From assembly GCA_965230915.1 (NCBI GenBank), contig OZ246395.1:76019-140018 (forward strand): a DNA stretch of 64,000 nt, read 5' to 3'. How positions within the stretch are numbered: position 1 is the first letter of the stretch; the number at the start of each line of letters is the position of its first letter. The DNA comes from an uncultured Candidatus Saccharibacteria bacterium. GTDB taxonomy: Bacteria > Patescibacteriota > WWE3 > 2-01-FULL-39-13. Made by a program: the position numbers and the translations under genes. The notes under the pieces were generated by a model. That model did no database searches. It was not told the DNA's origin and saw only the letters and a list, made by a program, of their open reading frames with translations. Positions 16,599 to 41,924 of the stretch are shown here, one piece after another.

Positions 16599-16609
16599 CT
16601 GGGTGGAAC

Positions 16610-17128: not shown

Positions 17129-17300
17129 TTGTAGTTCCTTTCAAACCTTAATGTGCGATTAAATAATTACTACGGTAAGCTATAAAAAACCCCAACATTT
17201 ATCTCTTTTACTTCTTGCCAACTCCTTATCGGAGAGAGATAGCCTGTTGGGAGGCTAGGCGATTAGCTAAATGCTAACTTCGGGCAAAAACTGTTTCAAA

Positions 17301-17795: not shown

Positions 17796-17914
17796 GGTTT
17801 TTTTGCCTTTCAGTGTGCGAAACGAACAATTTTCACATTCCTGCGAATTTGCAAGAATTGGCGTTATTATAAGCTATTTTGACAGGGAAGTCAATACTAT
17901 AGGTCTGGGGGCGC

Positions 17915-22784: not shown

Positions 22785-24059
22785 ATGAAAAAACTTGCAA
22801 CACAGCCACTAACCGGTTTTCGTGATTTTTTGCCAGAAGACTGGAAAATTCAATCTTATATTTTTAACACCTGGAAATCGGTATGTGAACGTTATGGTTA
22901 TAAAGAATATAACGGTCCTGTTTTAGAAAATGTAGAAATTTACAATAAATCTGGCGATGATGTGGGTGCTGCTGGTAAAGAATTGTATGCGTTTAAAGAT
23001 CGTGGAGAACGCGATGTTGCGCTACGTCCAGAAATGACCCCGACTGTTGGCCGTATGGTTGCTGCGTATGGAAAGCAATTTACAAAGCCTATTCGATGGT
23101 TTAGTATCGCTCAATTTTTTAGAGCGGAAAAACCTCAACGCGGACGTGGTCGTGAATTTTTTCAATTAAATGCAGATATTTTTGGGGTCGATTCAGTTTA
23201 TGCTGATTTTGAAGTAATTGATTTGGCCATTAACATTTTAGTTGAATTTAAAGCAACTAATGAGATGTTTAAGGTTAAAATTAATAACCGAAAATTATCC
23301 GACTATTATTTTTCAGAAATTCTAAAAGTTAATAACGAAGACCAAAAACGCTCCATTTTAAAGCTTATTGATGCATATCCAAAAAATGGCGACAACTGGC
23401 TTTACGCAAAAGCCGATGAAATGGGAATTGATGGATTACACTCCAAATTAAAGAAATATCTTTCATTAACAACTAAAGATTTAAGTGAAATGAAAGGCGA
23501 AAACGAAGGTGTAGACGAGCTTATTCAGCTTTTTGAACTAATAGAAGCCGCCGGATTGTCAAAATACTGCGAGTTAGAGACAACTATCGCTCGTGGATTC
23601 GATTATTACACCGGAATGGTATTCGAAGTTTTTGATATGAACCCACAAAACAATCGATCAATGTTTGGGGGAGGTCGCTATGATGATTTATTAAATCTAT
23701 TTGGTGAAGAAAAAATGCCAGCAGTCGGATTTGCTCCCGGCGATATCACAACAAAGCTATTCTTAGAAAGTTGGGGATTATTAGAAGGGTTTGATATGAA
23801 CCAGAAAGAAAGCTTTTATATTCCAGTGTTAAATAAGGACGATTTCAATTTATACAAAGAAATCGCCGATGATATAAGACGCGGCGGATCAATTGCCGAA
23901 CTTTCTTTAAGCGAAACAAATATCTCAGAAGCACTAAGAACTGCGAATAAAAATAAAATGAACTATGTAGTAATTATGGGTGAAGACGAAAAGAAAAATG
24001 AGTGTTACAAGCTAAAAGACATGAGAAGCGGAGAAGAGAAAACCATTAATTTCGCATAA
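22785..24059 (+). CDS. hisS: histidine--tRNA ligase
   Basis: Class II aaRS motifs (FRDFLPED…, RGFDYYTG) and a C-terminal anticodon-binding domain. Confidence 0.9.
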   Translation: MKKLATQPLTGFRDFLPEDWKIQSYIFNTWKSVCERYGYKEYNGPVLENVEIYNKSGDDVGAAGKELYAFKDRGERDVALRPEMTPTVGRMVAAYGKQFTKPIRWFSIAQFFRAEKPQRGRGREFFQLNADIFGVDSVYADFEVIDLAINILVEFKATNEMFKVKINNRKLSDYYFSEILKVNNEDQKRSILKLIDAYPKNGDNWLYAKADEMGIDGLHSKLKKYLSLTTKDLSEMKGENEGVDELIQLFELIEAAGLSKYCELETTIARGFDYYTGMVFEVFDMNPQNNRSMFGGGRYDDLLNLFGEEKMPAVGFAPGDITTKLFLESWGLLEGFDMNQKESFYIPVLNKDDFNLYKEIADDIRRGGSIAELSLSETNISEALRTANKNKMNYVVIMGEDEKKNECYKLKDMRSGEEKTINFA

Positions 24060-24067
24060 AAATTCCA

Positions 24068-24128
24068 AGGTGACAGAATAACAGTGACACGATTAGGTTC
24101 GTATTTTTGCTATCCTGTCACCTTTTTT
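24068..24128 (+). terminator. hairpin + T-run after hisS (bidirectional terminator candidate)
   Basis: AGGTGACAG … CTGTCACCT followed by TTTTTT. The loop is large. Confidence 0.45.
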
Positions 24129-24142
24129 GTTAGACGGTTTCC

Positions 24143-24751
24143 TTAGTGTCTGCACTTGCTCCTGTTTTCTAAAAGGCCAGCTATGCCGACTATCCCCATC
24201 ATCGTAAGAAGAAATCCGACTAGCCATATAGCGGCTATGGTTATGGGTTGTGTCCAAAAGACATAAAACTTTGTCGCATCGGTCGGGTAAACTCTTGTCT
24301 TGTTGGTTGTACCTTCCACTAGGATTCCAAGAACATCACCCTCATCGATTTCGACGTGTCCGCTTGCAGTTGTTTGCAGCGTATAGTATTGATCTATCCA
24401 CAACACACCCAAGGGAACTGGGGATCGAACGCCTTCGATTCTTTCTTCCCCAATCCTAATTGCGAAACTTTGAGGTGCCGCCACGGTTATCGTTACGGTG
24501 TCTGAACCCAGCTCTGCATATCTTCCGCGGGAAAGAGTAAATTCAGACGCGGGATCATGAACTACAACTGCAAGGGCGTAAAAGTTGATAACTTGAACCA
24601 AACCATACGCAATTACCAGCCATGAAAGAAACACTAGCACAACGATCCAGTTTTCTTTGCAAAAAACGGCAACGCTAACAATCCGAGGTGGAACTTTAAT
24701 TGCAGACATAGCACGCATTTGTCGATTCCTTCCTAGCCATGTAGTGTGCAA
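24143..24751 (-). CDS. membrane protein (DUF3592-like)
   Basis: Two TM helices flank a β-rich region. The segment looks more GC-rich than its neighbours. Confidence 0.4.
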   Translation of the reverse strand: MHTTWLGRNRQMRAMSAIKVPPRIVSVAVFCKENWIVVLVFLSWLVIAYGLVQVINFYALAVVVHDPASEFTLSRGRYAELGSDTVTITVAAPQSFAIRIGEERIEGVRSPVPLGVLWIDQYYTLQTTASGHVEIDEGDVLGILVEGTTNKTRVYPTDATKFYVFWTQPITIAAIWLVGFLLTMMGIVGIAGLLENRSKCRH

Positions 24752-24886
24752 AACTAATACGCGATGTATTAATTAGGGGAATATTAACAGTTTGTTAAAT
24801 TATTTCATAGCGAAACCCCAGCGTTAGCGCTATACTTTGCATAATCAAAAAAGTTATTTGTTTATTACCTCAGGAGGTGAATTCAC

Positions 24887-25198
24887 TTGGCAGAAGTTAC
24901 AAAAACCCCATCTGGCGATAGCAATATTTTTGCTGCGCTTAGTTATTTATGGATTCTTTCGATAATTTTTTATGTCATCAAAAAAGATGATGAATTCGTG
25001 AAATTTCACGCAAAACAGGGAATGGTACTTTTAGCAGTAGAAATAGTTGCTATGTTCCTATTTTTCTTAGGACCAATTCCAGTTCTTATTAATCTTGTCG
25101 TGTTTGTCCTTATGGTTATAGGAGCGATAAAAGCTTATCAGGGAGAAAAATATAGAATTCCTGTTGTTGCTGATTTAGCAGACAAAATCAATTTCTAA
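24887..25198 (+). CDS. DUF4870 family small membrane protein
   Basis: …ALSYLWILSIIFYVIKKDDEFVKFHAKQGMVL… signature. Strong SD AGGAGGTG 8 nt upstream of a TTG start. Confidence 0.55.
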   Translation: MAEVTKTPSGDSNIFAALSYLWILSIIFYVIKKDDEFVKFHAKQGMVLLAVEIVAMFLFFLGPIPVLINLVVFVLMVIGAIKAYQGEKYRIPVVADLADKINF

Positions 25199-25297
25199 TT
25201 GATTATGGTCACAGACCATAAGTACTGCTAAAACAAAAGTTCTATAGATTTTAAATTTTGTTTTGCAGTGACTAGAAGGAATTATTTTAGAGCATAG

Positions 25298-25328
25298 TTG
25301 GGAGGCCATAGAATGCCTCCCAATTTTT
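25298..25328 (+). terminator. intrinsic terminator
   Basis: 9-bp stem TTGGGAGGC/GCCTCCCAA with an 8-nt loop, followed by TTTTT. Confidence 0.6.
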
Positions 25329-25364
25329 GTTCTTTTTCACGGTTGATGTATTACAATTACTCGT

Positions 25365-25688
25365 ATGGTTAAATCACTCGGAGAAATTCTTCGAAATATT
25401 CAAGCAAAAGACGCAGGAAAATATCTTAAACATGAATGGCAATTATACGGCTACCGTTTGGCTAATTGGCTCGACGATATGGACCGAATTTCCCTTTATA
25501 TGCGTCTCGCCAAAACCGAACACCGCAAATTACTAGATGAAGCTTGGGATTTCGTTAAAGACGCTTATCATCCGAACTCAAAGTCAAAGCTTTTTATGTG
25601 GAAGTTATCGCAGTTACGCAAAGAACGGAAAGACAAGGAGCAGGCAGCTGAGATAAAAGCCGATGAGCAGGGACAGACTATTCTCTAA
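25365..25688 (+). CDS. hypothetical protein
   Basis: 107-aa ORF. No recognisable motif. Confidence 0.35.
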   Translation: MVKSLGEILRNIQAKDAGKYLKHEWQLYGYRLANWLDDMDRISLYMRLAKTEHRKLLDEAWDFVKDAYHPNSKSKLFMWKLSQLRKERKDKEQAAEIKADEQGQTIL

Positions 25689-25715
25689 TAAATTTTCTTG
25701 TGTTAACGTATATCT

Positions 25716-26285
25716 ATGAGTAATCCTCTGTTTGATAGATATAAAATTCCTTTCTTGTTTTCAATCGCAATAACACTCGCCGTTATAATCTTTTCTAATC
25801 AAGTTTCGACATTGTCACAGACCGAATTAGCTTTAAGTGCCTCTATAGCTTTTGTAGGATCTATTGCAGGCTTTTTATTGGTTGACTTAGAATATCTAAT
25901 TCATGCTTACCTTGTTGATCCTTCTAGCGATGTGTCAATAAAGATAAAAGATCTTTTTTCGCATGGAAAGTTTGTTGCCTTGATCGATTATTATAATCAT
26001 GAAGAACACACGTTTGGTGAGCTTTCGATTAGAAGCGCAATGTTTCAGATTATATTGGCAGGTCTTTCTCTAATTGTTGTAACTGGTGACACTTGGATTT
26101 TCGCCAAGACAATGGTCTTATCAATGGGGGCAACCTTATTATATTTTCAATTTGCAGAATACCTAAGAGCACATACATTATTGCGCTGGTTTTGGATTTT
26201 TACGGGAAACCTAACCGACAGCTTTTATAAAGCTTATATGGTCGTGCTTTTTATTATCTATATATACCAATTCACGCTTTTGTGA
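25716..26285 (+). CDS. hypothetical membrane protein
   Basis: Several predicted TM helices. No motif. Confidence 0.35.
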   Translation: MSNPLFDRYKIPFLFSIAITLAVIIFSNQVSTLSQTELALSASIAFVGSIAGFLLVDLEYLIHAYLVDPSSDVSIKIKDLFSHGKFVALIDYYNHEEHTFGELSIRSAMFQIILAGLSLIVVTGDTWIFAKTMVLSMGATLLYFQFAEYLRAHTLLRWFWIFTGNLTDSFYKAYMVVLFIIYIYQFTLL

Positions 26286-26300
26286 TTTGATATTACTATC

Positions 26301-27272
26301 ATGCCCAAAATTCTTTGTATTGGACATATAACACTTGATACCTTTTTAACGGTTGAGAATGTCGACGTTCACTGCGATTTAAATCACATTGATTGCAAAA
26401 TTTCATTCGGGTTCGGAGCTAAGGTTCCTGTTAAAGATGTTTTCTATTCAATCGGGGGAGGTGCAGCTAATACAGCTGTGGGTCTTCGAAAGCTAGGTCA
26501 TGAAGTATCGGTTTTCACAATTTTAGGAACAGATGCAAAAGCCAAGGACGTTATTAAGCAATTGTCGCATGAGAAAATAGATATTTCGCATATTGAACAA
26601 GATAGTAACCCAACCGACCAAGCGTCAATAATCTCATATGAGATTGAAAGGACTATCTTCACATATAGCTATCCAAGGAAGTACTCGGTTAAAAACATAG
26701 ACGAAAAATTTACAGCAATCTACCTTTCGTCGGTAGGTACCGAGGTGGCCCAATTGTATAAAGAAATTATCCATTTAAAGCAGAAAGGCTCAATTAAAAG
26801 CTTATTCTATAACCCTGGCTCGCGTGAAGTTAAAAATGCTCGTTCGGAAATGAATGAATTATTAAAGCATGTTGATTATTTAATAGTTAATGTAGAAGAG
26901 GGCTGTGAAATTTTAAATTTAGGGTTAAAGCGTACCGATATTGAAATGCAAGATTTAATGAACTTGTTAAACGAAAAGGGTCCAAAGCATATTGTGCTTA
27001 CAGATTCAGATAATGGAGCATATGTTTGGTCCGAAGGGGACTTGCACCATCTTCCGGCAAAAAAAGTTGAAGTTGTAGAAAAGACCGGTGCCGGTGATGC
27101 TTATGCATCAGGCTATATAGCGGCTATTTTATATGGATACGATATTAAACAGTCATCTAAATTCGGGATTTTAAACAGTTCCAATGCAATACAAAGTATT
27201 GGAGCTCAAACAGGCCTTTTAACAAAAGCCGATTTAATCAGAGAATTAGGCGAAATTCCCAATAAAAATTAA
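26301..27272 (+). CDS. PfkB family carbohydrate kinase (ribokinase-like)
   Basis: GGGAANTAVGL (GG motif) and the C-terminal TGAGDAYASGYI ATP-binding motif. Confidence 0.75.
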   Translation: MPKILCIGHITLDTFLTVENVDVHCDLNHIDCKISFGFGAKVPVKDVFYSIGGGAANTAVGLRKLGHEVSVFTILGTDAKAKDVIKQLSHEKIDISHIEQDSNPTDQASIISYEIERTIFTYSYPRKYSVKNIDEKFTAIYLSSVGTEVAQLYKEIIHLKQKGSIKSLFYNPGSREVKNARSEMNELLKHVDYLIVNVEEGCEILNLGLKRTDIEMQDLMNLLNEKGPKHIVLTDSDNGAYVWSEGDLHHLPAKKVEVVEKTGAGDAYASGYIAAILYGYDIKQSSKFGILNSSNAIQSIGAQTGLLTKADLIRELGEIPNKN

Positions 27273-27274
27273 AA

Positions 27275-28549
27275 TTATTTATCAGAAGAGGTTAAGCTTG
27301 GAGCTTCTTGCTCGATATGGTGAGCCTGATTATTTATTAATGATGTAACTGAACTCACCTTATTATTTTTGAAGATAGGGCTGTCATCTTGAAATATACG
27401 TGTTCTTCCAAGTGTCGAAAGTGTAATTATTGGCAAAATACCAATAATCATAAGGGTTATTCTTATGGTTAAATCATCTTCAAGGTTTAGTCCGGTAAAT
27501 AGTAATAAACAAATAGGGACTAATCGGCCGATTGATGTTACTGTGTCAACTAAATATTGATATTCGGAGTACAATTGATATTCTTTGCGGTCTTCGCTCA
27601 TAATTCGCTCTGTTGAAGCGTTATATGAAACCTCTTTAACAACATCCATAAATTGGGCTGCGACTAAAAAGCCTAAAATAACGGCAAAATTTATTTCAGA
27701 TAAAAAGAATGTACTGGCCGCTGCAAAGATAAATGCTCCAATAGAATAGAGAACCTTAGAGTTAAAATTATTTACCCATATTGTTAAAAAGAAGCTAAGG
27801 ATAATCCCGAATAAGACGATACCGCTATTTATTAAACCCCATTTCAAGAAAGATTCAGCAAACATAAGTACGATGACCGGAAGAATTGTAAGCGTAATAC
27901 CTTCTGAAAGGCCTTGAATAAAAACCCCTTTAACTAAATGAATCTTATCGCTATTGGTTCCAGGGAAGGTCAGAATATTTTTTAAATCAAAATTATTATG
28001 ATTTGGCGGTATTTTATATAAAAATACAACAATTGTTTTAGCTATTAAGAGAATAATTATTAATTGGAATAGAAAGTCGAAATTTCCTTCTGTAACAGTA
28101 AGTAAATAGGCAGCCGCTAATGGTAATGAAACACTAATAAGTCTTGAAAATAATGATTTATCCGCGTAGTAATGGTTTAAATCAGCACGTTCTCCTTGAA
28201 CTTCGTATTCAATAGCATGGATTGGAATACTTCTAAATGATTCGCCAACGCCTCCCAGTACTGCAATTACAACTAAAGCCAGAATACTGATAGGAAATTG
28301 AACATAAATCATTAGTACAATCTGAAGGATTTGTATCCATATACCAACAAGCATTGTTATTTTTATATCGAACTTGTCGGTAAGATAGCCTGCCAAAAGT
28401 CCAATGATTGGTGTAACCGCAAAATAAGCCAACACGAATATAAGCACGTCGCGCAGATCGCGTGTGTTGTCCCATATATATAAAGTGAAGAAGGTTCTTT
28501 CGAGCACGTCACTTGATATGGCGAGTAGGCGAAGTGGAGGCAAGTTCAT
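27275..28549 (-). CDS. MFS-like polytopic transporter
   Basis: About 12 hydrophobic helices. Weak similarity only. Confidence 0.4.
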   Translation of the reverse strand: MNLPPLRLLAISSDVLERTFFTLYIWDNTRDLRDVLIFVLAYFAVTPIIGLLAGYLTDKFDIKITMLVGIWIQILQIVLMIYVQFPISILALVVIAVLGGVGESFRSIPIHAIEYEVQGERADLNHYYADKSLFSRLISVSLPLAAAYLLTVTEGNFDFLFQLIIILLIAKTIVVFLYKIPPNHNNFDLKNILTFPGTNSDKIHLVKGVFIQGLSEGITLTILPVIVLMFAESFLKWGLINSGIVLFGIILSFFLTIWVNNFNSKVLYSIGAFIFAAASTFFLSEINFAVILGFLVAAQFMDVVKEVSYNASTERIMSEDRKEYQLYSEYQYLVDTVTSIGRLVPICLLLFTGLNLEDDLTIRITLMIIGILPIITLSTLGRTRIFQDDSPIFKNNKVSSVTSLINNQAHHIEQEAPSLTSSDK

Positions 28550-28891
28550 GGTTAGTTTTATTATAAAGTGTTTTAAAGTTCAAAGAAAATTTTTTAAAAT
28601 TTTGCGGGAATTATTCTGAAAATAAAGATACTAGATCTTACGACGTTGTTAATTGTACGCGACTGATTTTGGCTTTTTGTTACAACCTAAGTTTAATTGA
28701 GAAAAAAATCAAAAAAGTTAGGGGAGTCTGAAAAAAAATAAAAAGTAGGGGGTGTTTTTGAAAAAAAAGGTCCTCCCCCGATTTTGGCCCAAAAGCCACT
28801 CCCCCGGTTTTTGAAAATTCCCGAACTATGACAATGTAGGGCAGCTTGGGGAAGACCTGGGTCTTGGCCAAAGCCAAAACGTCGGTTATAG

Positions 28892-29320
28892 TTGTGGTAT
28901 ATGGTATCTCAGATCTCCACTTTATCGAAATTATCCCTATTTTTAGCTCTTTTAGGCGTGGGCATATCCGGATATCTGGCATATGCACGTATAACAGAAG
29001 CCGAAATTGTGTGTGGACTATCTACGTGCGGTATCGTAAATGGTAGTGAATATGCATATTTTTTAAATGTTCCGGTCAGTTTTTGGGGATTAGCCTTTTA
29101 TTTGACCTGTGCGGCTTTAATTTTATTTAAACAGCCTAAGGTGTTCTTAATTGTTACAACAATCGGCTTAATTTTTTCGGCCTACCTTACCTTTCTCGAA
29201 GCCTTTGTAATTCACGCTTGGTGCCAATGGTGTTTGTTATCTGCATGGATTTCTTTATCGCTTTTTATTATTGCGATAAAATCTAATAATCAAAATATTT
29301 CTGTCGAAACAAAAACATAA
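28892..29320 (+). CDS. vitamin K epoxide reductase (VKOR) family protein
   Basis: Four TM helices. Loop cysteines (VCGLSTCG) and a CQWC redox motif. Confidence 0.65.
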   Translation: MWYMVSQISTLSKLSLFLALLGVGISGYLAYARITEAEIVCGLSTCGIVNGSEYAYFLNVPVSFWGLAFYLTCAALILFKQPKVFLIVTTIGLIFSAYLTFLEAFVIHAWCQWCLLSAWISLSLFIIAIKSNNQNISVETKT

Positions 29321-29370
29321 GTAACAAATAAAGCGAATGATTACGTTCGCTAATTTGCCAAAGTAAAAAC

Positions 29371-30111
29371 ATGGATCAACTTTTACTAATCATAATTTTT
29401 TCTACATTTATTTTAAGTTTGATTACATTTGTTGCAGTAGTTTTACTTGCATTTAATAAAAAACTTTTAGACAACATAATTTTTTCACTTGTAGCAATTG
29501 CTGCGGGTTCAATGTTGGGAACCGCATTTTTGCATTTGTTGCCCGAAGCAATAGATTTTTTATCCGCTGAAATAGTGCTTAAAACCACACTTTTTTCGAT
29601 ATTAGCCTTTTATCTTTTAGAGAAAATTATGCATTGGCATCATCCACATAATGAACCTAGCCATGTGCATTCATTTGGATATTTAAATTTAATGGGAGAT
29701 TTGATTCACAATTTTATAGACGGATTAATTCTTGCTTCAACTTTTATTGTTGATATTAATTTGGGTTTTACAACTTTGTTTGTTTTGGCTTTGCATGAAA
29801 TTCCACAAGAACTTTCTGACTTTGGAGTTTTGTTATACGCAGGTTTTACAAAGAAGAAGGCATTGGTTTTAAATTTTTTTGTCGGAGTTTCGTCGGTGTT
29901 AGGTGGAATCCTCGGCTACTACCTTGCCTCTTCTGTTGAATCTTTTGTGCCGTATTTATTGCCGGTTGCCGCAGGAGGGTTCATATACATTGCGACGTCT
30001 GACTTAGTTCCATCTTTTAAAAAAGAGCGCCAATACAGGAAATCTATTAATGCAACTATTATGTTTATGCTAGGTATAGCGCTCCCACTCTTGATCAGTA
30101 CGATAGAATAA
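29371..30111 (+). CDS. ZIP family metal transporter
   Basis: LALHEIPQELSDFGVLL signature of ZupT/ZIP transporters. His-rich loop. Confidence 0.75.
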   Translation: MDQLLLIIIFSTFILSLITFVAVVLLAFNKKLLDNIIFSLVAIAAGSMLGTAFLHLLPEAIDFLSAEIVLKTTLFSILAFYLLEKIMHWHHPHNEPSHVHSFGYLNLMGDLIHNFIDGLILASTFIVDINLGFTTLFVLALHEIPQELSDFGVLLYAGFTKKKALVLNFFVGVSSVLGGILGYYLASSVESFVPYLLPVAAGGFIYIATSDLVPSFKKERQYRKSINATIMFMLGIALPLLISTIE

Positions 30112-30115
30112 TTGC

Positions 30116-30970
30116 GTGAACCGTCTATCAATACCCGATTACAACTTCCACCAAACTTTACTAGGAGGCCAGGCCTTTAACTGGGACCACTATATAGTAG
30201 AAGACAAACATGTTTTTTATGGAACCACTCAAGATCGGCTAATTAAATTAGTTGTTGAGAATGATGGTAGTGATGAAGTGTTGTGGCAGACTTTTCCAAA
30301 AAATGATGAGTACGATTTTTTAAAACAATATTTAAAATTAGATATCGATTATAAAAATATTTTAAAAAAAATAAATAAAGATGAGCATGTTAATTCAGCA
30401 ATAAATCATTACCCTAACCTGCGGCTTTTATCTCAAGATTTTGATCAGACCACTTTGTCATTCATTATATCGGCGTTTAATTCGATCAAGTCCATAAGAA
30501 CGCGAATCAACAAAATGAAGCGTGATTTAGGTGAAAAGCTGATCGTAGATGACCGTGAATTCCACCTTTTTCCAAAAACTGAGGTTATTGCTGATGCTCG
30601 TGTTGATTTGCTGACTTCGCATAGCCTTGGGTATCGAGCAAAGTACATAAAAGAGGCCGCGAATATCATTTTAAGAGAAAATTTAGGCAATAAGTTGGCT
30701 GGCCTAGACGAAGAAAGCGCTAGGGCTGAGCTGCTAAAACTGCCCGGTATAGGAGACAAAGTAGCCGATTGCATAATGGTTTTTTCGCTGGGGTTCGATA
30801 ACCTAACCCCTCTAGATATATGGGGAAAGCGTGTTTTTACTGATTTGTATGGCCTGGACTCAAAAATGAAATATTCAGATATGCGCAAGTGGCTAGGCGA
30901 ATATTTTAATGGATACGCAGCCTGGGCTGGGCAGTTTTTATTTGAGTGGTATAGAACTAAGGGCAAATAA
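30116..30970 (+). CDS. ogg: 8-oxoguanine DNA glycosylase (OGG family, HhH-GPD)
   Basis: LPGIGDKVADCIMVFSLG helix-hairpin-helix/GPD motif typical of Ogg. Confidence 0.7.
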   Translation: MNRLSIPDYNFHQTLLGGQAFNWDHYIVEDKHVFYGTTQDRLIKLVVENDGSDEVLWQTFPKNDEYDFLKQYLKLDIDYKNILKKINKDEHVNSAINHYPNLRLLSQDFDQTTLSFIISAFNSIKSIRTRINKMKRDLGEKLIVDDREFHLFPKTEVIADARVDLLTSHSLGYRAKYIKEAANIILRENLGNKLAGLDEESARAELLKLPGIGDKVADCIMVFSLGFDNLTPLDIWGKRVFTDLYGLDSKMKYSDMRKWLGEYFNGYAAWAGQFLFEWYRTKGK

Positions 30971-30983
30971 ACCCGCGCTACCA

Positions 30984-31012
30984 TTGACATTCTTCCGCTC
31001 AGCAGATATACT
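30984..31012 (+). promoter_or_regulatory. near-consensus sigma70-type promoter (TTGACA-17-TATACT) plus downstream operator-like palindromes
   Basis: TTGACA at 30984-30989, a 17-nt spacer, TATACT at 31007-31012. Followed by GAATGC/GCATTC (31022-31040) and GATCAC/GTGATC (31051-31069) inverted repeats, then an AAAGGGA RBS. Confidence 0.45.
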
Positions 31013-31095
31013 ATAGGCCTTGAATGCTGTTGCGGCATTCGATTAACTTTGATCACTGTGGTGGTGATCACTATAACATCCAGAAAGGGATTGTT

Positions 31096-31677
31096 ATGAA
31101 GCACATTAATCTTGAGTCTATCGATCAGTATGAACTCGTCGGCTTCCGCACACATTATGGCTTTTGCTATCTGGCATTTGCCAAAATGGGGTGGATGGCG
31201 CGGGTGGGCCATTTGGCTTTGACCAGCAATGGTTTTTCGAGCATCTTCGATGGCGGCTACGGCTCTATCGACTCTGACTGGGAGATTGTGCATTTCGTCG
31301 GAAAGCAACACGTGGACGAGACCATTGGATGGTCCGTCTACTGCAATGGCGAGGCAAACCGCTTCGATATGGAAATGCCTACGGCAGACGCTTCGGATTA
31401 TGCTGAACTTTCTCTGGCAGATTTGAAACTGTCGCTTTTCTATCGTCTTGCTGCGATTTCGTATGTCGAAAGCCCACAGGGGATCTTTAAGCCCAAGCAA
31501 ATCGCTTGGTTTAAAGAATTTGAGCGTCGGTTCCGCAGTATGTGGGGCCAAGGCGCAGACACAAATCTGTGGCCTGGCAGTATCGGCGATCGTGGGCCAA
31601 CTTCACGCACAATGGACATTCTGTCCGACGCGTCGCGTGGTCTCGACTACAGCATGGGTGACTTTCGAGAAGAGTAA
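31096..31677 (+). CDS. hypothetical protein encoded in a segment that looks GC-rich (candidate horizontally acquired gene)
   Basis: 193-aa ORF from ATG 31096 with an upstream RBS. By eye ~50% GC against ~35-40% flanks. No recognisable motif. A long antisense ORF here is a GC artefact. Confidence 0.5.
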   Translation: MKHINLESIDQYELVGFRTHYGFCYLAFAKMGWMARVGHLALTSNGFSSIFDGGYGSIDSDWEIVHFVGKQHVDETIGWSVYCNGEANRFDMEMPTADASDYAELSLADLKLSLFYRLAAISYVESPQGIFKPKQIAWFKEFERRFRSMWGQGADTNLWPGSIGDRGPTSRTMDILSDASRGLDYSMGDFREE

Positions 31678-31805
31678 CTAGCTTCTCGGTTTTCGGGGGT
31701 ACATGGTGCTACAGCACTTTAGCCATATGGCCTTGTACCTCCGAAGTTTTTTTAAGTTTCTAAATATTTAGGGGTTTAAAAAAGCTTATAATTAAAGCAA
31801 CAAAT

Positions 31806-32594
31806 ATGGCATTTTCTAGAAATAGCAAACATACTCGCCGAACTCCACATGAAGGAGGATACAAAGGTAAAAACGCATGGAATTCGCACGCAAACTGGTA
31901 CGCCGGAATGGTAGGCAGTGAAGGCAGTATGTATCACCAAAAATTGGCTTTTCCACATACTTTAAAACTTTTGAGTATAAAAGAAGATGACAAAATATTA
32001 GATATTGGCTGTGGCACAGGTGTTTTTTCTCAATACGTCAAAGAAAAAGGTGGAAAATACTTTGGGCTCGATATAAGTAAGAGAATGATTGCCCAAGCTA
32101 AAAAAGATTTTTCACAACAAGGAAAATTTTTCGAATTTGACATACTTAAATTACAGCCTAGAGGTGAGTTTGCCCCTGGCTCTTTTGACGCTGTCACATT
32201 TATTTTGAGTATTCAGGATATGTCTGATCTCGAATCGGTAATAAAAAACGCATCAAAGCTATTAAAAAAAGGTGGAAAGCTAGCGATGTTCATAAAACAT
32301 CCCGCATTTAATATTCCTCGTCAGAGTGGATGGATAGAAGATAAAGAGCGTAGTCTAACATCAAGAAGAGTAGATCGCTATTTAACTCCACTTGATATGC
32401 CGCTTGTTAAGAAGCTAAAAAATCAAACAATCACAACTTTTCATTATCATCGTGCACTGCAAGATTATATGAATGCTTTAATAAAAAGTGATCTAGAAAT
32501 TTTTGCTTTTGAAGAGGTACAAGACACTATTTTAAAAGATAAAAAGACTTCAGAATTTCCACTTTTCTTGGCTATCGGAGCTAAGAAGAAATAA
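31806..32594 (+). CDS. class I SAM-dependent methyltransferase
   Basis: Motif I ILDIGCGTGVF and downstream acidic motifs. Confidence 0.6.
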   Translation: MAFSRNSKHTRRTPHEGGYKGKNAWNSHANWYAGMVGSEGSMYHQKLAFPHTLKLLSIKEDDKILDIGCGTGVFSQYVKEKGGKYFGLDISKRMIAQAKKDFSQQGKFFEFDILKLQPRGEFAPGSFDAVTFILSIQDMSDLESVIKNASKLLKKGGKLAMFIKHPAFNIPRQSGWIEDKERSLTSRRVDRYLTPLDMPLVKKLKNQTITTFHYHRALQDYMNALIKSDLEIFAFEEVQDTILKDKKTSEFPLFLAIGAKKK

Positions 32595-32670
32595 TGGTCG
32601 GGAAGATTGGACTTGAACCAACAACCTCGCGAACCCGAATCGCGCGCGCTACCAATTGCGCTACTTCCCG
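32595..32670 (-). tRNA. tRNA-Pro (anticodon CGG)
   Basis: The reverse complement CGGGAAGTAGCGCAATTGGTAGCGCGCGCGATTCGGGTTCGCGAGGTTGTTGGTTCAAGTCCAATCTTCCCGACCA folds as a cloverleaf. Anticodon loop UUCGGGU. CCA is encoded. Confidence 0.8.
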
Positions 32671-32807
32671 TTGTAGAATTTGAATTTATTCATCGAAATT
32701 TCGCAGCCTGGCGAATTTCTCATAATAAATTCAAATTCCAGACATGCACTCACAAGTTTAGATTATAAAACTTTACGCAAAAATATCCTATGCTATACTG
32801 CAGAAAT

Positions 32808-33797
32808 ATGGACACGGACAAACTAGTATTCGGAATAATCGGTGGAATCACGCTATTAATCACCGCAATTATAATAATTACTTCTTTCTCAACTACATCA
32901 TCAGCAGAATTAAAGGCACAGGAAATAATCGGAAATAACGCACACAGAAAAGGTCCAGAAAGCGCAAAATTAACAATTGTTGAATTCAGCGACTTTGAAT
33001 GTCCATACTGTGCACAATACAGCCCAATTTTATCTTCTTTACAGGCACAATATCCAAATGATTTAGCAATTGTTTATCGAAACTTCCCATTACCAATGCA
33101 CGCTGGTGCAGTACCTGCAGCAAGAGCAGCAGAAGCCGCAAATAATCAAGGTAAATTCTGGGAATATCATGATGAACTTTTCGCAAACCAGCCGAACTTT
33201 ACGCAATCAGACCTTGAGAGCTATGCACAAACTTTAGGCTTGAATATCGATCAGTTTAAAGCTGATTTTAATAGCTCAGATGTTATAAACAAAGTTCAAG
33301 AAGATGCAGATTATGCTAGAAAACTGGGAATTTCTGGTACGCCAACTTTTTATGCCGTTTATGATGGAAAAGTTGAAAAAATCAGCTTGCAGCAATACTC
33401 TGATTTAGAATCAAAAGTTAAATCAGTCCTCGGAGATCCGGCACAGGCAGCCGAAGTTCAACCAGGTGATTCTACAGCTGATTCAAATTCAACTGGTGGA
33501 CCAACGGTTGGGGCACAGGTTCCTGCAGATATGCCACAGAACATTCCGATGAATGTGACTTTAGATATAGTTAATGTTCAAAGAGATAATGTTGCTCCAA
33601 GTCAGGTTAATATTACTTCTGTAACAAAAGAGACATGGCCAAGTGCAGATTTAGGATGTCCAAAAGAAGGCATGACTTATGCGCAAGTAGAAACCCCGGG
33701 ATATAAAGTGTTAGCCGAAGCAAATGGCGAGATTTTCGAATATCATACAGATGAAGCAGCTTTGGCTGTTAACTTTTGCAGTGTGCAAGCTAAATAG
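32808..33797 (+). CDS. DsbA-like thioredoxin-fold protein with C-terminal extension
   Basis: N-terminal TM helix. CPYC active site (FECPYCAQY). Start moved to the ATG at 32808, since the ORF-track start overlaps the -10 box. A TTTACG-17-TATACT promoter lies upstream. Confidence 0.6.
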   Translation: MDTDKLVFGIIGGITLLITAIIIITSFSTTSSAELKAQEIIGNNAHRKGPESAKLTIVEFSDFECPYCAQYSPILSSLQAQYPNDLAIVYRNFPLPMHAGAVPAARAAEAANNQGKFWEYHDELFANQPNFTQSDLESYAQTLGLNIDQFKADFNSSDVINKVQEDADYARKLGISGTPTFYAVYDGKVEKISLQQYSDLESKVKSVLGDPAQAAEVQPGDSTADSNSTGGPTVGAQVPADMPQNIPMNVTLDIVNVQRDNVAPSQVNITSVTKETWPSADLGCPKEGMTYAQVETPGYKVLAEANGEIFEYHTDEAALAVNFCSVQAK

Positions 33798-33899
33798 GCC
33801 TAATCTTATATACAACACAAATCCAAATACATACTTAAAGCTGAGTAATTCAAACTTACTCTTTGTATAGAATCGTAGTTATTATATCCGAAGTTTGAA

Positions 33900-34451
33900 T
33901 TATGAAGGTTTAATGTATGATTTATATTTCGTATCTTTCTTCATAGCAAGATCGATTAATCCTCTAATATAGTCCGATTTTGTAATCTTTTTATTTTCCG
34001 AAACCCATTTTAAATAATCTGAAGTTTGCTTATTAAAACTTAGTCTGAATTGGTTATTATTATAATTTTCTACCTCATTTACTGTGTCTTCGAGTTGTGT
34101 TTCGAGCTCGGCCACTTTGTAGCCACGAATTATTAGTTTGCTTTTAGGATTTAGCGCCATAAGTGGGAATAAATCGCGATTTCCGGTTTCGTCATGGTAT
34201 AAAACCACAACAGGAACTCCTTTTTCTAATGCAAAAGCCGATTCATAGCCAAGTTGCGCATTCGTATTTGAACCTTCGACCAAAACAAGATCATATTTTA
34301 ATATGTGGTTTACCTCGTCTGAAGAATAGTCGTCTTTGTTTTTTACATCTATTATGTTTACATCAACTTTATGGTTAGAGTTTTTTAATGTGGATTTGAT
34401 TCGCTCTATTATAGAAGAGTCTTTGTTTGCAGAGAGCAAATAAATTTTCAT
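33900..34451 (-). CDS. nucleoside 2-deoxyribosyltransferase-like (Rossmann-like) protein
   Basis: DLVLVEGSNTNAQLGYESAFALEKGVPVVVLY matches the NDT-like D..G…E.GyA.A.gKPV pattern. C-terminal helical extension. Confidence 0.35.
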   Translation of the reverse strand: MKIYLLSANKDSSIIERIKSTLKNSNHKVDVNIIDVKNKDDYSSDEVNHILKYDLVLVEGSNTNAQLGYESAFALEKGVPVVVLYHDETGNRDLFPLMALNPKSKLIIRGYKVAELETQLEDTVNEVENYNNNQFRLSFNKQTSDYLKWVSENKKITKSDYIRGLIDLAMKKDTKYKSYIKPS

Positions 34452-34538
34452 AATTGCAGTTTATCGTTTATAAGTTGAAAAACAAGCGGAAGCCCTCTAT
34501 ATAATACCTTTCAGGTATAAGGGCTTCCGCACACACGA

Positions 34539-35003
34539 CTATGGATCGATCTCGGACATCAGTTTTTTCAATGACTCAGATTTGGCCGAGGTGAACCGAA
34601 TAACTTCTCCGTGATCGAAGACAAAATTATAAAAAATTTCTTTGTCTTCTAAAGACGTTCGGTGCAGGATTACCTTTACGAGCGATCTAGAGACAAACCT
34701 AATAACTGAGTCAATGATCAAGTCGGAGTATTTGTGTGTCAATAAAGCATCTGCTAAGTCATGCTCCTCGAGAATCAGCCGGATTCTTTCATTTGCCCAG
34801 GCGAAACTAATTGGGCCTATGACCTCTGAAAGACCCGCCGTATGAAACACGCCGATATAAACCTGTTCCAAGTCAGAGTTGGCTACCTCATGGATCGTCA
34901 GAAAGAACAGATTTGGCCTTTCGGCGTAATAAGGGTGTAAGCCCTCTGAAATCTTGTTTATGACCAAGAAATTGGTCATTCGTTCAAGTCGTTGGCGTGC
35001 CAT
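34539..35003 (-). CDS. hypothetical protein
   Basis: 154-aa ORF co-oriented with the NDT-like gene. No motif. GC looks slightly elevated. Confidence 0.4.
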   Translation of the reverse strand: MARQRLERMTNFLVINKISEGLHPYYAERPNLFFLTIHEVANSDLEQVYIGVFHTAGLSEVIGPISFAWANERIRLILEEHDLADALLTHKYSDLIIDSVIRFVSRSLVKVILHRTSLEDKEIFYNFVFDHGEVIRFTSAKSESLKKLMSEIDP

Positions 35004-35087
35004 ACCAATCCTCCCGTTTTATGAAATGTTCGTAATGCCAAAATCGTGTTGGTCGTAATTATAGACTATTTCGTGTAATATCCAATC

Positions 35088-35762
35088 ATGGTAGAAATAG
35101 ATACCTCAGGTAAGAAAGTTAAAGAAATCGTCTCACAGCTACATAAAGTTTACGAAGAGCCAAAAACAGAGCTTGATAATTGGGAAAATCCGATTCAGTT
35201 TATGGCTTCTGTAATATTAAGTGCTCAAGCTACAGATAAGGGGGTCAATAAAGCGACTCCAGCGCTTTTTGCAAAATATAAAACTGCCACTGATTTTGCC
35301 AACGCCGATATAGATGAGCTAATGAAGTTAGTTTCATCTATAAACTTTTATAGAGTAAAGGCTCAAAGAATAATCGATGCCAACAAATTTGTAATTGAAA
35401 ATTTTGGCGGAGAATTACCCGCAGACATAAATAAACTTGTCTTGATTCCAGGCATCGGCCGTAAAAGCGCAAATGTAATTATGCAAGAAGCCTTAGGTGT
35501 TGAAGCCGTCGGTATGGTTGTTGATACGCACATAACACGCTTATCTAATAGATTGGGTCTACAGCCTTACGATAATCAAAAAGATGCAGTCAAAATTGAA
35601 CAAAAATTAATGGAAACATTTCCACAAGAGGAATGGAGATTTTTATCTCAGGCTATGGTTTTGCATGGGCGATATGTTTGTACAGCCAAAAAACCGAAAT
35701 GTAGCGAATGCGTGCTAAATAAGCTTTGTCCTAGCGCTTTTAAAATCCCTGGGGCGCAATAA
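35088..35762 (+). CDS. nth: endonuclease III
   Basis: HhH motif LIPGIGRKSANVIM and a C-terminal 4Fe-4S cysteine cluster (C…CxxxxxxCxxC: CTAKKPKCSECVLNKLC). Confidence 0.85.
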   Translation: MVEIDTSGKKVKEIVSQLHKVYEEPKTELDNWENPIQFMASVILSAQATDKGVNKATPALFAKYKTATDFANADIDELMKLVSSINFYRVKAQRIIDANKFVIENFGGELPADINKLVLIPGIGRKSANVIMQEALGVEAVGMVVDTHITRLSNRLGLQPYDNQKDAVKIEQKLMETFPQEEWRFLSQAMVLHGRYVCTAKKPKCSECVLNKLCPSAFKIPGAQ

Positions 35763-35805
35763 ATTTCAATTATTTTAGGTTTACACTTAAAGTGCTATTC
35801 TTCTA

Positions 35806-36873
35806 GTGATGACATCTGCCCAATCTATAGTTTCTTCACCTACTAACGCTGCAATAGCTCCCAAAAGCTTTAAAAAAGTTGTTTTTTTTGACCTTAAAGA
35901 TTGGGAAAAAGACGAAATAAATAAAATAATGCCGCAATTCGAAATTAAACTGTGCGAAGACCCTCTAAACATCGAAAACGCTTCACAGTTTTCTGACGCC
36001 GAAGCTATATCCACATTTATAAATTCTGATTGTAGTGCAAAAGTTTTAGAGACGTTTCCAAACCTGCAACTTATTACGACGCGCTCGACTGGTTACGATC
36101 ATATAGATATGGAATATTGCAAAGCCCACGGAATAAATGTTGCGAATGTTCCATCATACGGATCAAACACTGTAGCAGAACACGCAATGGCTTTAGTTTT
36201 AAGCCTTACCCGTCGCGTTGTCGAATCCGTAGACCGAGTACGCCGAAATGACTTTACTCCTGATGGCCTTACAGGTATTGATTTAATGGGTAAAGTAATG
36301 GGGGTTATTGGTACAGGTAAAATTGGTCAGAATGTTGCTAAGTACGCATCTGCTTTTGGCATGAAAGTCTTGGCTTTTGATCTAAAGCCCAACCCAGAAC
36401 TGGCCGATAAATTTGGCTTCACCTATGTTGATATGGATTTACTTTTAGCAAAAAGCGACGTTGTATCTTTACACGTTCCATATTTACCAACGACGCATCA
36501 CATTATTAATAAATCAAACATACTTAAAATGAAAAAAGGCGCATACCTAATTAATACAGCCCGCGGAGGACTAATCGAAACCGACGCATTGTTTGATGCC
36601 CTTAGAACTGGTCATTTAGCTGGAGCTGGCCTAGACGTTTTAGAAGAAGAAAAATTCCTAACAGAAGAGGCTGAGCTTTTACACAAAGACTCGCATGGAA
36701 ATGTCGACTTTAAAATTGCGCTCGAAAATCACATGCTCGCATATTTGCCAAACGTCGTTATGACTCCACATAATGCATTTAATTCTAAAGAAGCCTTGCA
36801 AAGAATTATAGTAACAACCGTTGATAATATTGTTTGCTTTGCAAAGGGCAAGTGTGAGAATATACTAAAATAA
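35806..36873 (+). CDS. D-isomer-specific 2-hydroxyacid dehydrogenase family protein
   Basis: NAD-binding GVIGTGKIGQNVA. Catalytic R/E/H region (MTPHNAF). Confidence 0.75.
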   Translation: MMTSAQSIVSSPTNAAIAPKSFKKVVFFDLKDWEKDEINKIMPQFEIKLCEDPLNIENASQFSDAEAISTFINSDCSAKVLETFPNLQLITTRSTGYDHIDMEYCKAHGINVANVPSYGSNTVAEHAMALVLSLTRRVVESVDRVRRNDFTPDGLTGIDLMGKVMGVIGTGKIGQNVAKYASAFGMKVLAFDLKPNPELADKFGFTYVDMDLLLAKSDVVSLHVPYLPTTHHIINKSNILKMKKGAYLINTARGGLIETDALFDALRTGHLAGAGLDVLEEEKFLTEEAELLHKDSHGNVDFKIALENHMLAYLPNVVMTPHNAFNSKEALQRIIVTTVDNIVCFAKGKCENILK

Positions 36874-36918
36874 ATCCACTTGGATTTTTGTTTTTGCTCT
36901 GCCCTACTTAAATAAATC

Positions 36919-37851
36919 ATGATATACGACACAATAATAATTGGAGCTGGAGCTGCTGGATGTTCAGCCGCTGTTTACGCTACAAGGTATAACTTAAAAA
37001 CTTTAATGCTTGGAGGTCCGATGCCAGGTGGTTTAATAACCGAAGCATTAGATGTAGAAAATTACCCTGGCTATATTTCTATTCCTGGTTTAGAGCTCGG
37101 CAATAAATTTATAGAACATGCAACCAAGCTCGGGGCTGAATATAAAATAGAGATCGTAGAGTCTATTATAAAGAATGGCAGCGATTTCATAGTGAAAACT
37201 AATGCCGAAGGGTACCAAACTAGGTCAGTAATTTTGGCTACTGGTACACACCATAGAAAATTAAACATACCAGGTGAATATGAATTGTCTGGTAGAGGTG
37301 TAAGTTATTGTGCAACTTGCGACGCGCCATTTTTCAGAGGAAAAACTGTAGCAGTAATAGGTGGTGGCAATAGTGCCGTAGAAGGTGCTCAAGACATAGC
37401 AGTTCATGCCAAACATGTCTATTTGATCTCTAGAAGTTCACTGAAAGCTGCGCCATTTTATGTCACTCAACTTAGAACTAAAAGTAACATAACTGAGATT
37501 CCTGATACAAATTTAAAGGAAATAAAAGGCACTAATATAGTAGAAAGTGTACTCTTGGACAAACCCTACAATAATAGCGATAGCTTAAAAGTTGACGGTG
37601 TATTTGTTCAAATCGGTTATATCCCTAAGAATGAATTGGCTATATCAGCTGGAGTAGAAGTCACAGAATATGGCTACGTAAAGGTAGACCAAGGAATGGG
37701 TACCAATATAAAGGGTATATTTTGTGCAGGAGATTTAAATAATGGTTCAAATCAGTTGCATCAGCAAGTTACATCCGCTGCTGAAGGTGCAATAGCTGCT
37801 CAAAGTGCATACCGTTTTTTGCAGGGTATGGACTACATCGTAAACGCTTAA
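36919..37851 (+). CDS. trxB: thioredoxin-disulfide reductase
   Basis: FAD GxGxxG (IIGAGAAG). Redox-active CATCD. NADPH GGGNSA motif. Confidence 0.85.
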   Translation: MIYDTIIIGAGAAGCSAAVYATRYNLKTLMLGGPMPGGLITEALDVENYPGYISIPGLELGNKFIEHATKLGAEYKIEIVESIIKNGSDFIVKTNAEGYQTRSVILATGTHHRKLNIPGEYELSGRGVSYCATCDAPFFRGKTVAVIGGGNSAVEGAQDIAVHAKHVYLISRSSLKAAPFYVTQLRTKSNITEIPDTNLKEIKGTNIVESVLLDKPYNNSDSLKVDGVFVQIGYIPKNELAISAGVEVTEYGYVKVDQGMGTNIKGIFCAGDLNNGSNQLHQQVTSAAEGAIAAQSAYRFLQGMDYIVNA

Positions 37852-40048: not shown

Positions 40049-40487
40049 TATGGAATTCTCAGTACTAAACTTAAATTCAACCAAATTTTTTGCCTATATT
40101 TTTTCATCTTTAATGCTCTTTATGGTGGTGGCCATAAGTGCTCCCCAGATGTATTCTGACGCAGCGAGACCTGCATACGCGAGTCAGAAAGAAGTAGTTG
40201 TATTGCAGTGTGAAATTCGCTAGAATAACCGTTGCTTAGTTGGTTGAACAAAAATTCTCCAACATTCTAGCGAAAATTCGCACAAGCCCAGACATAACTA
40301 ACTAAAACAGAAGCCTTTCTGGTTTTTGTTTTTTTGAGTTTTTGTCCACCTAAATAGGGTGTAAGCGAGTAGCTCATTTATAATTAAAGAGATTTTTTTA
40401 CAGTCATATAAAATCATTTTTTATTAATTTATTAAAATTAAAAACAGCAAACCAATCGAGTTTTGATTGGTGAAAAGAATTCTATTT

Positions 40488-41924
<1,437 letters not shown>

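Follow-up and report, generated by a model that had tools for sequence, protein, structure and literature searches.

The stretch of DNA analysed here, referred to throughout as the window, is 64,000 nucleotides of contig OZ246395.1 from an uncultured Candidatus Saccharibacteria bacterium. In it, an extra segment of 835 bp with a GC content of 0.479 (30971..31805, plus strand) runs from the stop codon of ogg, the 8-oxoguanine DNA glycosylase gene, to the ATG of a gene for a class I S-adenosylmethionine (SAM)-dependent methyltransferase. The two flanking genes, ogg on the left (30116..30970, plus strand; Pfam OGG_N and HhH-GPD) and the methyltransferase gene on the right (31806..32594, plus strand; assigned by Pfam), lie outside the cassette. 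The cassette consists of a sigma-70-type promoter, a leader with three predicted hairpins, the coding sequence (CDS) of a 193-aa orphan protein, and a branched intrinsic terminator. A first-pass annotation, made from the letters of the sequence, had described a self-contained GC-rich insertion with a near-perfect promoter, two operator-like palindromes, one gene without a recognisable motif and a terminal hairpin followed by a T-run. We found all of these parts, and what had to be revised are two interpretations, that the palindromes are operators and that the gene is a recent acquisition.

The 193-aa open reading frame (ORF) proposed at 31096..31677 on the plus strand is, judging from its pattern of substitution, real, protein coding and under purifying selection. 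The closest relative of the cassette is at locus L001, where the orphan protein is 77% identical and the methyltransferase gene likewise comes next. In nucleotides, the CDS and its L001 orthologue are 80% identical, with dN = 0.14 and dS = 0.77 (nonsynonymous and synonymous substitutions per site), a ratio of 0.18, and the family alignments agree with the assignment. A 368-aa antisense ORF, which spans the 3′ end of ogg and the promoter, had been taken for an artefact; it is 61% conserved vs. 77% for the sense frame, as befits a shadow frame.

The public gene call is for a protein of 217 aa, and thus adds a 24-codon in-frame extension (31024..31095, plus strand), which we judge to be non-coding leader RNA. 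In the comparison with L001, none of the 24 third positions of the extension differs, where about eight differences are expected, and all three changes that do occur are nonsynonymous, including one of Arg to Trp. Furthermore, the ATG at 31024 sits in the stem of the first leader hairpin and is missing at locus L019, which represents a third lineage, and the remote homologues do not align to the extension. We therefore rejected the 217-aa frame. The annotated start is probably wrong, and translation probably begins at 31096, preceded by the Shine-Dalgarno sequence AAAGGGA.

The promoter (30984..31012, plus strand) has TTGACA at 30984..30989 and TATACT at 31007..31012, separated by 17 nt, and matches the consensus at 11 of 12 positions. 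No sigma-70 site within 8 kb matches better, and the 64 kb contain just one other with at least 11 of 12 matches. Both hexamers are kept in L001 and in L019, with one change in the −35 element of each, and the L019 promoter, TTGACG-17-TATAAT, is at the corresponding position. By contrast, 10 of the 17 spacer bases differ in L001, and the retention of the hexamers while the spacer diverged provides support for a promoter function. Such a record is what one would anticipate for a functional promoter with a tightly constrained leader behind it, and transcription is predicted to start near 31019.

The leader is predicted to fold into three hairpins with a free energy of −28.3 kcal·mol−1 (z = −3.3). 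Hairpin H1 in the minimum free energy (MFE) fold is UUGAAUGCUG-UUG-CGGCAUUCGA (31020..31042, plus strand); it would lie at the very 5′ end of the mRNA and has the tip Y-G-U-N-G-C-G. Hairpin H2, UGAUCAC-UGUGGUG-GUGAUCA (31050..31070, plus strand), has the tip Y-G-U-N-G-U-R. The palindromes that were originally noticed, GAATGC/GCATTC and GATCAC/GTGATC, the latter in full TGATCAC/GTGATCA, are thus the arms of H1 and H2. Hairpin H3 (31072..31098, plus strand; −8.1 kcal·mol−1 alone) pairs the AUG and part of the Shine-Dalgarno sequence (about 31084..31090).

The leader is strongly conserved in the comparison with L001. Three differences fall in the 89 nt between the −10 element and the ATG, compared with differences at 66 of 194 third codon positions (34%), so that the leader is about 10-fold more conserved than the third positions, and this holds for the single-stranded linkers as well. 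Two of the L001 changes are inside the conserved 7-nt tip of H1, where pairing is still possible, and H2 is identical in L001. In L021, L009, L006, L019 and L020, the same tip is carried on other stems.

One or two such hairpins are found within about 130 nt upstream of the ATG in seven of the eight family members, some of which are only 25–30% identical in protein sequence; for L008, with 44 nt of upstream sequence, a similar hairpin has an 8-nt loop. The stems are unrelated in sequence, and the seven central bases of the 12 tips follow Y-G-U-N-G-Y-R with the G, U and G invariant. The H1-type tips are TGTTGCG, TGTGGTG, CGTTGCG, CGTGGCG and CGTCGCG, and the H2-type tips are TGTGGTG, TGTGGTA, TGTTGTG, CGTTGTG and TGTCGTA. 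A regular-expression search of 152 kb on both strands for this tip on a stem of at least 7 bp gave the family leaders only, apart from one antisense site in the L006 CDS, and shuffles of the window gave 1.4 matches even with stems of at least 4 bp allowed. When the 12 hairpins are compared cell by cell, 95.4% of the cells pair, and seven of the nine pairs show changes on both sides (31 cells), a result that none of 500 shuffles reached. An unsupervised analysis of five whole leaders by MAFFT and RNAalifold recovered both H1 and H2, and 12 of the 17 pairs are compensatory. When these five leaders were made into a covariance model, it found the held-out L009 leader in place (E = 0.13) and had no other match in 136 kb on both strands. 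G·U on the sense strand accounts for 27 of the 32 non-Watson–Crick stem positions, and G·U on the antisense strand for one.

These results bear directly on the idea that the palindromes are duplex-DNA operators, bound by a dimeric repressor that controls the promoter. The arrangement would suit it, with two dyads directly downstream of a near-consensus promoter, each having arms of 6–7 bp around a 7-bp centre. However, the arms of the two dyads differ from each other, so they are not two sites for one repressor; across the cassettes the arms change wholly and the non-palindromic centre is kept, the reverse of what a dimer site would show; the G·T positions are strongly biased to one strand; and the cassette has no regulator gene. 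We regard operators as extremely improbable. Because the arms covary, the centre is conserved and G·U occurs essentially on the sense strand alone, the palindromes carry the hallmarks of hairpins formed by the RNA of the 5′ leader. In Rfam release 15, neither the leader nor the 3′ element had a match near the gathering score, in the window segment or in seven related loci. We suggest that the H1–H2 element is a candidate for an undescribed cis-regulatory leader RNA motif, coupled to an equally undescribed and very rare protein family.

Three more specific functions for the tips were considered. The search for a kissing partner of the loops within the transcripts gave no consistent complement. 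A mimic of the tRNA anticodon arm, with NGC in H1 and NGU in H2, was rejected because the covarying closing pair fixes U at position 3 of the loop rather than position 2. Pairing of a T-box-like UGGN to the 3′ end of tRNA was also rejected, as position N4 varies among G, U and C.

Downstream of the CDS, the GGTACA…TGTACC hairpin and T-run of the first description prove to be part of a larger, branched intrinsic terminator (31691..31753, plus strand). Its 13-bp outer stem, UUUCGGGGGUACA / UGUACCUCCGAAG, encloses inner hairpins including GCCAUAUGGC and is followed by U7. The hairpin (31691..31746; T7 at 31747..31753) folds with −27.2 kcal·mol−1 (z = −3.7). The changes in L001 fall in loops, switch G-C to G-U pairs, or affect one base at the foot of the stem. 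In L019, about 80% of the terminator sequence is kept despite a protein identity of 28%; the outer stem is retained with one compensatory change of a G-C to an A-U pair, the GCCAUAUGGC inner hairpin is retained, and the other inner position carries a different hairpin. The conserved terminator would isolate the cassette from the methyltransferase gene, which has a TATAAT of its own 13 nt upstream of its ATG (31787..31792, plus strand; read from the sequence), also conserved in L001. In locus L012, where the cassette is absent, a TATAAT is 8 nt upstream of the methyltransferase ATG, within the 3′ end of the ogg coding sequence (L012 5975–6003). This −10 element is presumably the methyltransferase gene's own promoter, which would be needed once the terminator is in place. 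Its closeness to the ATG, both in the window (31787–31808) and in L012, implies a leaderless or nearly leaderless methyltransferase mRNA.

The orphan protein belongs to a very small family, eight protein clusters from about 15 billion proteins. A word-indexed search of 5.8 billion clusters returned only the protein itself and the L001 orthologue; exhaustive phmmer over 1.84 billion representatives gave five more at 27–37% identity, and a profile search gave one further member. All of these homologues are on contigs shorter than 1.8 kb. The claim that the protein has no recognisable motif is borne out by sequence, profile and structure searches. Profile searches with the 193-aa protein found no match in Pfam, PHROGs, NCBIfam, PADLOC or the Protein Data Bank (PDB), nor was there a match for seven family members in Pfam at E up to 5 or for all eight in PHROGs and PADLOC. 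In the alignment, Arg-x-His (R-[ST]-H-[FY]) is invariant, as are one His and one Trp, and there are also FDGG and a C-terminal motif of the WGQG type (W or F, G, Q or H, G). The conserved residues R18, H20, D52 and H66, together with Gly-rich loops, hint at a ligand-binding or catalytic site. The family proteins are acidic, with pI values of 4.7–6.6 (5.0 for the window protein), and rich in Trp. Two AlphaFold2 (AF2) models, with pLDDT of 62 and 67 and pTM of 0.64 and 0.69, have a sheet of about seven strands followed by helices. Foldseek with these moderate-confidence models, twice against the PDB and once against BFVD, gave no match, with TM scores of 0.27 or less that were mostly noise from the Hsp70 substrate-binding domain. 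Nothing credible came from tblastn against phage and plasmid records or from scanning viral contigs with two protein patterns and one DNA pattern. In L006 (1079–1510) and L007 (901–1332), the family gene overlaps a downstream 143-aa ORF without Pfam match by 11 nt, which suggests a two-gene operon there; this has no counterpart in the window.

To place the cassette in its context, syntenic loci were recovered via homologues of the methyltransferase that are 67–75% identical; direct scans of genome and metagenome contigs with the methyltransferase gave nothing but distant methyltransferases. The Logan runs SRR14271365 and SRR14271372 contain the window locus in identical form. L012 is collinear with the window gene for gene over 15 kb (window 22785–37851), with a 67%-identical methyltransferase and a 76%-identical OGG, and has 9 bp between the ogg stop and the methyltransferase ATG, compared with 835 bp in the window. 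This agrees with the view of the segment as a self-contained extra unit. In L015, from a groundwater genome assembly, the slot is filled by a gene for a 265-aa methyltransferase on the opposite strand; contig JGI 3300050046 has a 138-aa ORF without Pfam match between ogg and the methyltransferase gene; and L018 is without ogg. Gene order marks the interval from ogg to the methyltransferase gene as a variable slot. The segment is absent from L012 and other genes take its place elsewhere; L001 has an orthologue with the same right flank. Upstream, L001 has another, divergent gene and an AT-rich spacer of 240 bp, and its homology to the window starts about 10–15 nt upstream of the −35 element. 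In L019, the promoter, leader and terminator are laid out alike around a gene for a 28%-identical homologue. The left flank there ends in EWYRSR*, compared with FEWYRTKGK* at the end of the window ogg, and the right flank resembles the 5′ end of the methyltransferase gene, so this homologue is in what looks like the same slot.

The composition of the segment is unusual for the window, as the first-pass annotation had judged by eye. The GC content of 30971–31760 is 0.495 and that of the CDS is 0.510, compared with a mean of 0.383 (standard deviation, sd, 0.041) for 790-bp windows across the 64 kb; the only equally GC-rich 790-bp windows are in the 16S and 23S rRNA genes. A 300-bp sliding profile gives 0.51–0.52 over 31100–31700 vs. 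0.29–0.44 on either side. The 3′ half of ogg is somewhat richer in GC in the relatives too (halves 0.33/0.41 in L012 and 0.38/0.44 in L015). Codon usage deviates as well: GC at the third codon position (GC3) of the CDS is 0.572, compared with 0.313 ± 0.077 for 44 other long ORFs (z about 3.4), and the values for the three positions (GC1/GC2/GC3 = 0.54/0.42/0.57) show that GC1 and GC2 are raised also. Could this be an expression-linked codon bias? No gene of the window has a lower GC3 than that for ribosomal protein S1 (61297–62388; 0.21), which is normally expressed at a high level. Strong expression thus pairs with AT-ending codons in this genome, and expression-linked bias is ruled out as the source of the high GC3. 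The composition favours a foreign origin, and the first-pass annotation had raised a host organism as a possible higher-GC donor. Family members on contigs with GC contents of 0.50–0.60 reach a GC3 of 0.75, which is compatible with an origin at higher GC and names no donor.

A recent acquisition, which had been suggested from composition and the strong regulatory signals, does not hold on these comparisons. The third-position divergence from L001 is 34% for the cassette, similar to the 35% for the methyltransferase gene (hand-counted over 17 comparable codons), and the third-position changes are nearly symmetric, with 32 weak-to-strong and 26 strong-to-weak, leaving GC3 at 0.57 and 0.60. An orthologue with the same right flank, at a dS of 0.77, with the third-position divergence of the methyltransferase gene and with no net drift to AT, is not what a recently acquired gene would have, and the 28%-identical homologue in the seemingly same slot of a third lineage points the same way.

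Was the gene instead ancestral to the clade and lost or replaced in the relatives examined, with its high GC kept by selection on the mRNA or the protein? Cassettes are found beside the methyltransferase gene in three lineages (window, L001 and L019), with the ogg-like EWYRSR* terminus in the last; the synonymous divergence and the symmetric weak/strong changes fit this history; and the GC content of the CDS is 0.46–0.51 in all of the AT-rich contexts. On the other side, the raised GC1 and GC2 and the family members on GC-rich contigs are not accounted for. Furthermore, three window genes are extra compared with L012 in 15 kb (24143–24718 on the minus strand, 31096–31677, and 34539–35003 on the minus strand), all of them GC-richer ORFs without Pfam match, which suggests a general influx more than three separate losses in L012. 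We think that ancestral presence is unlikely. Our preferred reading, which we hold with moderate confidence, is that the cassette is an autonomous single-gene accessory unit of foreign-looking composition, residing in a variable slot of a small AT-rich genome of the Patescibacteria (CPR).

It is also conceivable that the cassette is a present or former small mobile unit, with its structured ends serving as recombination signals and the orphan protein as recombinase or cargo. The variable slot, the presence of the family in backgrounds of very different GC, and non-coding ends that are far more conserved than the CDS would be in keeping with mobility. In two of the GC-richer contigs, moreover, a structured direct repeat of 60–75 nt flanks the leader and ORF, with one copy after the preceding orphan ORF and one after the family gene (L021, 475–560 and 1258–1345, 81% identity; L020, 858–935 and 1498–1570). 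This repeat could be a genome-wide terminator, a REP-like repeat or a cassette boundary. Against mobility, the cassette and its 3′ structure are single copy within the 64 kb, and a search for insertion scars at the cassette found neither flanking direct repeats nor inverted repeats. There is no domain of a Y1 transposase, integrase or other recombinase, no GTTRRRY / RYYYAAC core sites are read at the 3′ hairpin, and a promoter of its own sets the cassette apart from those of integrons. Members of the family are exceedingly few, with no phage or plasmid matches, and a third-position divergence equal to that of the neighbouring methyltransferase gene indicates vertical inheritance. We consider a mobile unit very unlikely.

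The proposed mechanism for the accessory unit is as follows. The sigma-70-type promoter would start the mRNA at about 31019, with H1 capping the 5′ end. The first 50 nt or so would fold into the tandem hairpins H1 and H2, with the stems free to vary and the tips fixed as Y-G-U-N-G-Y-R, and a third, weaker hairpin would overlap the Shine-Dalgarno sequence and AUG. Translation would begin at 31096, not at 31024, to give a 193-aa acidic cytoplasmic protein. The branched terminator would end the transcript, and the methyltransferase gene would be read from its own −10 element. In this mechanism, H1–H2 acts in cis as a signal for mRNA stability, translation or both, and travels with the gene family across unrelated genomes.

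What would the hairpins bind? Since they travel with the gene, the partner could be the encoded protein or a component common to all cells, for instance a ribonuclease or the ribosome, or there may be no partner. Autoregulation by the encoded protein is unlikely in our estimate, and a universal component is about equally so. A stronger form of the first of these, that the tandem hairpins are the RNA operator of the downstream acidic, Trp-rich protein, which would then have a new RNA-binding autoregulator fold, and that promoter, operator, gene and terminator spread together between distant bacteria, is similarly unlikely; a variant of it takes the conserved 5′ and 3′ structures as the ends of a new kind of mobile cassette. 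That there is no partner and H1–H2 is a structural 5′ cap is slightly likelier, though still a tentative possibility. The corresponding explanation for the whole cassette is that H1 and H2 are a generic 5′ stabiliser, the tip being conserved as a stable cap, and the 3′ structure is just a strong terminator. H1 begins at the predicted 5′ end, a G-Y pair in the tip can close a U-N-G triloop, no complementary partner was found within the transcripts, and the proteins are acidic, all of which a stabiliser would accommodate. It would not readily explain three invariant tip bases in tandem hairpins across proteins that are 25–30% identical and genomes with GC contents of 0.38–0.60, nor a leader in which even the linkers are so much more conserved than third positions. 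We therefore regard the generic stabiliser as possible at a low probability, and the candidate regulatory motif as the better account of the leader.

Several points weigh against our readings of the leader and of the cassette. The start site, the 3′ end and the regulation are all inferred from sequence comparison. A shuffled sequence has 3.1 sites with at least 11 of 12 matches, so the promoter match by itself is not beyond chance. The leader comparison comprises eight proteins and seven independent leaders, a tiny family, and the 21-mers in the covariation test of 12 hairpins were picked by eye. The probability that the start region is unpaired is 0.43, vs. 0.53 ± 0.18 for 43 genes, making the occlusion by H3 unexceptional, and H3 is not conserved across the family; a strong sequestration of the Shine-Dalgarno sequence and AUG was rejected for the reason that occlusion is no stronger than in ordinary window genes. 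An acidic pI is unusual for an RNA binder and counts against autoregulation, and the 5′-terminal hairpin may simply protect the mRNA, with the tip a stability motif rather than a recognition site. As to origin, a dS of 0.77 with no net decay of GC3 means that the cassette is old; its high GC may be maintained rather than be a relic of transfer; and it may have been gained, or may be ancestral and lost elsewhere.

Other features of the window were noted. The second insertion relative to L012 and L015 (34452–35087, minus strand) has a 154-aa ORF (34539–35003) with no Pfam match and a GC3 of 0.50. Its neighbours are a conserved 183-aa gene and that for endonuclease III, and it has its own TTGGAT-16-TATAAT and a long, G+C-rich terminator hairpin. 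The third, relative to L012 (24060–24886, minus strand; GC 0.46), has a 191-aa ORF (24143–24718) with no Pfam match, located between the HisRS and MamF-like genes. The N- and C-terminal segments of this ORF are hydrophobic, and the insertion has a terminator hairpin of its own. On the minus strand at 16550–17900 are two weakly similar orphan ORFs (17301–17795 and 16610–17128) that are 34% identical over 50 aa (E = 0.006). Both have hydrophobic, signal-like N-termini, GC3 values of 0.58 and 0.56, respectively, and a terminator-like hairpin after each. This pair is behind the only other site in the window with at least 11 of 12 sigma-70 matches (TTGACT-17-TATAAT, 17894–17866) and shares no leader motif with the cassette. 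The slot between the methyltransferase and DsbA genes (32595–32789) is variable too: in the window, a minus-strand tRNA-Pro(CGG) directly adjoins the methyltransferase stop; in L012 there is a 163-aa ORF, and in L015 a 352-aa SNase-domain gene and a 64-aa ORF.

The 16S (40482–41924) and 23S (58100–60986) rRNA genes are 16 kb apart and thus unlinked, as has often been reported for Patescibacteria. Between them are ORFs of 1395 aa (42294–46481) and 1950 aa (46577–52429), smaller ORFs and several tRNA genes. At 57230–57303, ARAGORN gives a tRNA with a four-base anticodon, tcca, and no amino acid assigned, and Rfam gives a normal tRNA with 67 bits; either a tRNA-Gly(UCC) may have been parsed wrongly here or the tRNA may be truly unusual.

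The immediate yield of the analysis is an accessory gene recorded in a variable slot of a reduced genome, together with the correction of what is probably a mis-called start codon. Furthermore, it provides a candidate for a new cis-regulatory RNA motif that is supported by covariation in seven leaders and tied to one orphan family, in genomes with GC contents ranging from 0.38 to 0.60. The pairing of hairpins and gene makes the question of the binding partner directly testable. At least three of the GC-rich orphan units in the window have their own promoter-like site and terminator, and the three GC-richer orphan additions in 15 kb point to a regular route of uptake for autonomous single-gene units in such small genomes. 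A GC excess that has lasted through a dS of 0.77 is also a warning against reading deviant composition as recent transfer.

How does the cassette compare with known systems? In autoregulatory mRNA operators, of which the E. coli thrS leader and the leaders of ribosomal protein genes are examples, hairpins just upstream of the start codon are bound by the gene product. The cassette likewise has structured hairpins upstream of the start, which co-occur with the gene; it differs in that the protein is acidic and the binding hypothetical. The ompA leader has a 5′-terminal stabiliser stem-loop, and the cassette shares with it a stable hairpin at the predicted 5′ end. A specific loop sequence is not known to be required in 5′-terminal stabilisers, whereas the tip in the cassettes is invariant across distant homologues.

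The cassette resembles IS200/IS605 elements and integron cassettes in its size of about 0.8 kb, its one small ORF, its structured ends and a 5′ hairpin overlapping the ribosome-binding site. IS200/IS605 was rejected, as seven family members have no Pfam match to a Y1 (HUH) transposase or TnpB and the alignment has no invariant Tyr or H-U-H. An integron cassette was rejected as well, because the 3′ arms UUUCGGGGGUACA / UGUACCUCCGAAG with T7 have no attC core sites on either strand and the unit has its own promoter. The cassette also differs from both in being single copy and co-inherited vertically with its flank.

The tandem hairpins are reminiscent of the substrates of ANTAR proteins, two tandem stem-loops with terminal loops that are recognised by a protein dimer (PMC3369931). 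Those substrates have hexaloops in which position 1 is A and position 4 is G, on stems of about 3 bp, and the second hairpin and an intrinsic terminator cannot form together (PMC3369931). The cassette leader shares the two tandem hairpins, with variable stems and conserved loop positions. However, its tips are Y-G-U-N-G-Y-R or a U-N-G triloop, none of the 12 starts with A or is a hexaloop, and its stems are 7–10 bp long. No terminator follows H2, the next structure being H3 over the Shine-Dalgarno sequence and AUG, and Pfam finds no ANTAR domain in the cassette protein.

The closest parallel is with the morons of phages, autonomous units of promoter, gene and terminator that lie between genes adjacent in related phages (PMC3594210). 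The cassette has four of five moron features, namely its own promoter, its own terminator (the activity of both being predicted), a deviant GC content, and neighbours that are adjacent in a relative, L012. It departs from a moron in not residing in a phage or prophage, as its flanks are chromosomal housekeeping genes (ZIP transporter, ogg, methyltransferase, DsbA) and the cassette has no match among PHROGs, phage records or viral contigs. The definition of a moron also does not include a conserved structured leader, which the cassette carries. Judged by its layout, then, the cassette is best described as a moron-like autonomous unit in a bacterial chromosome.

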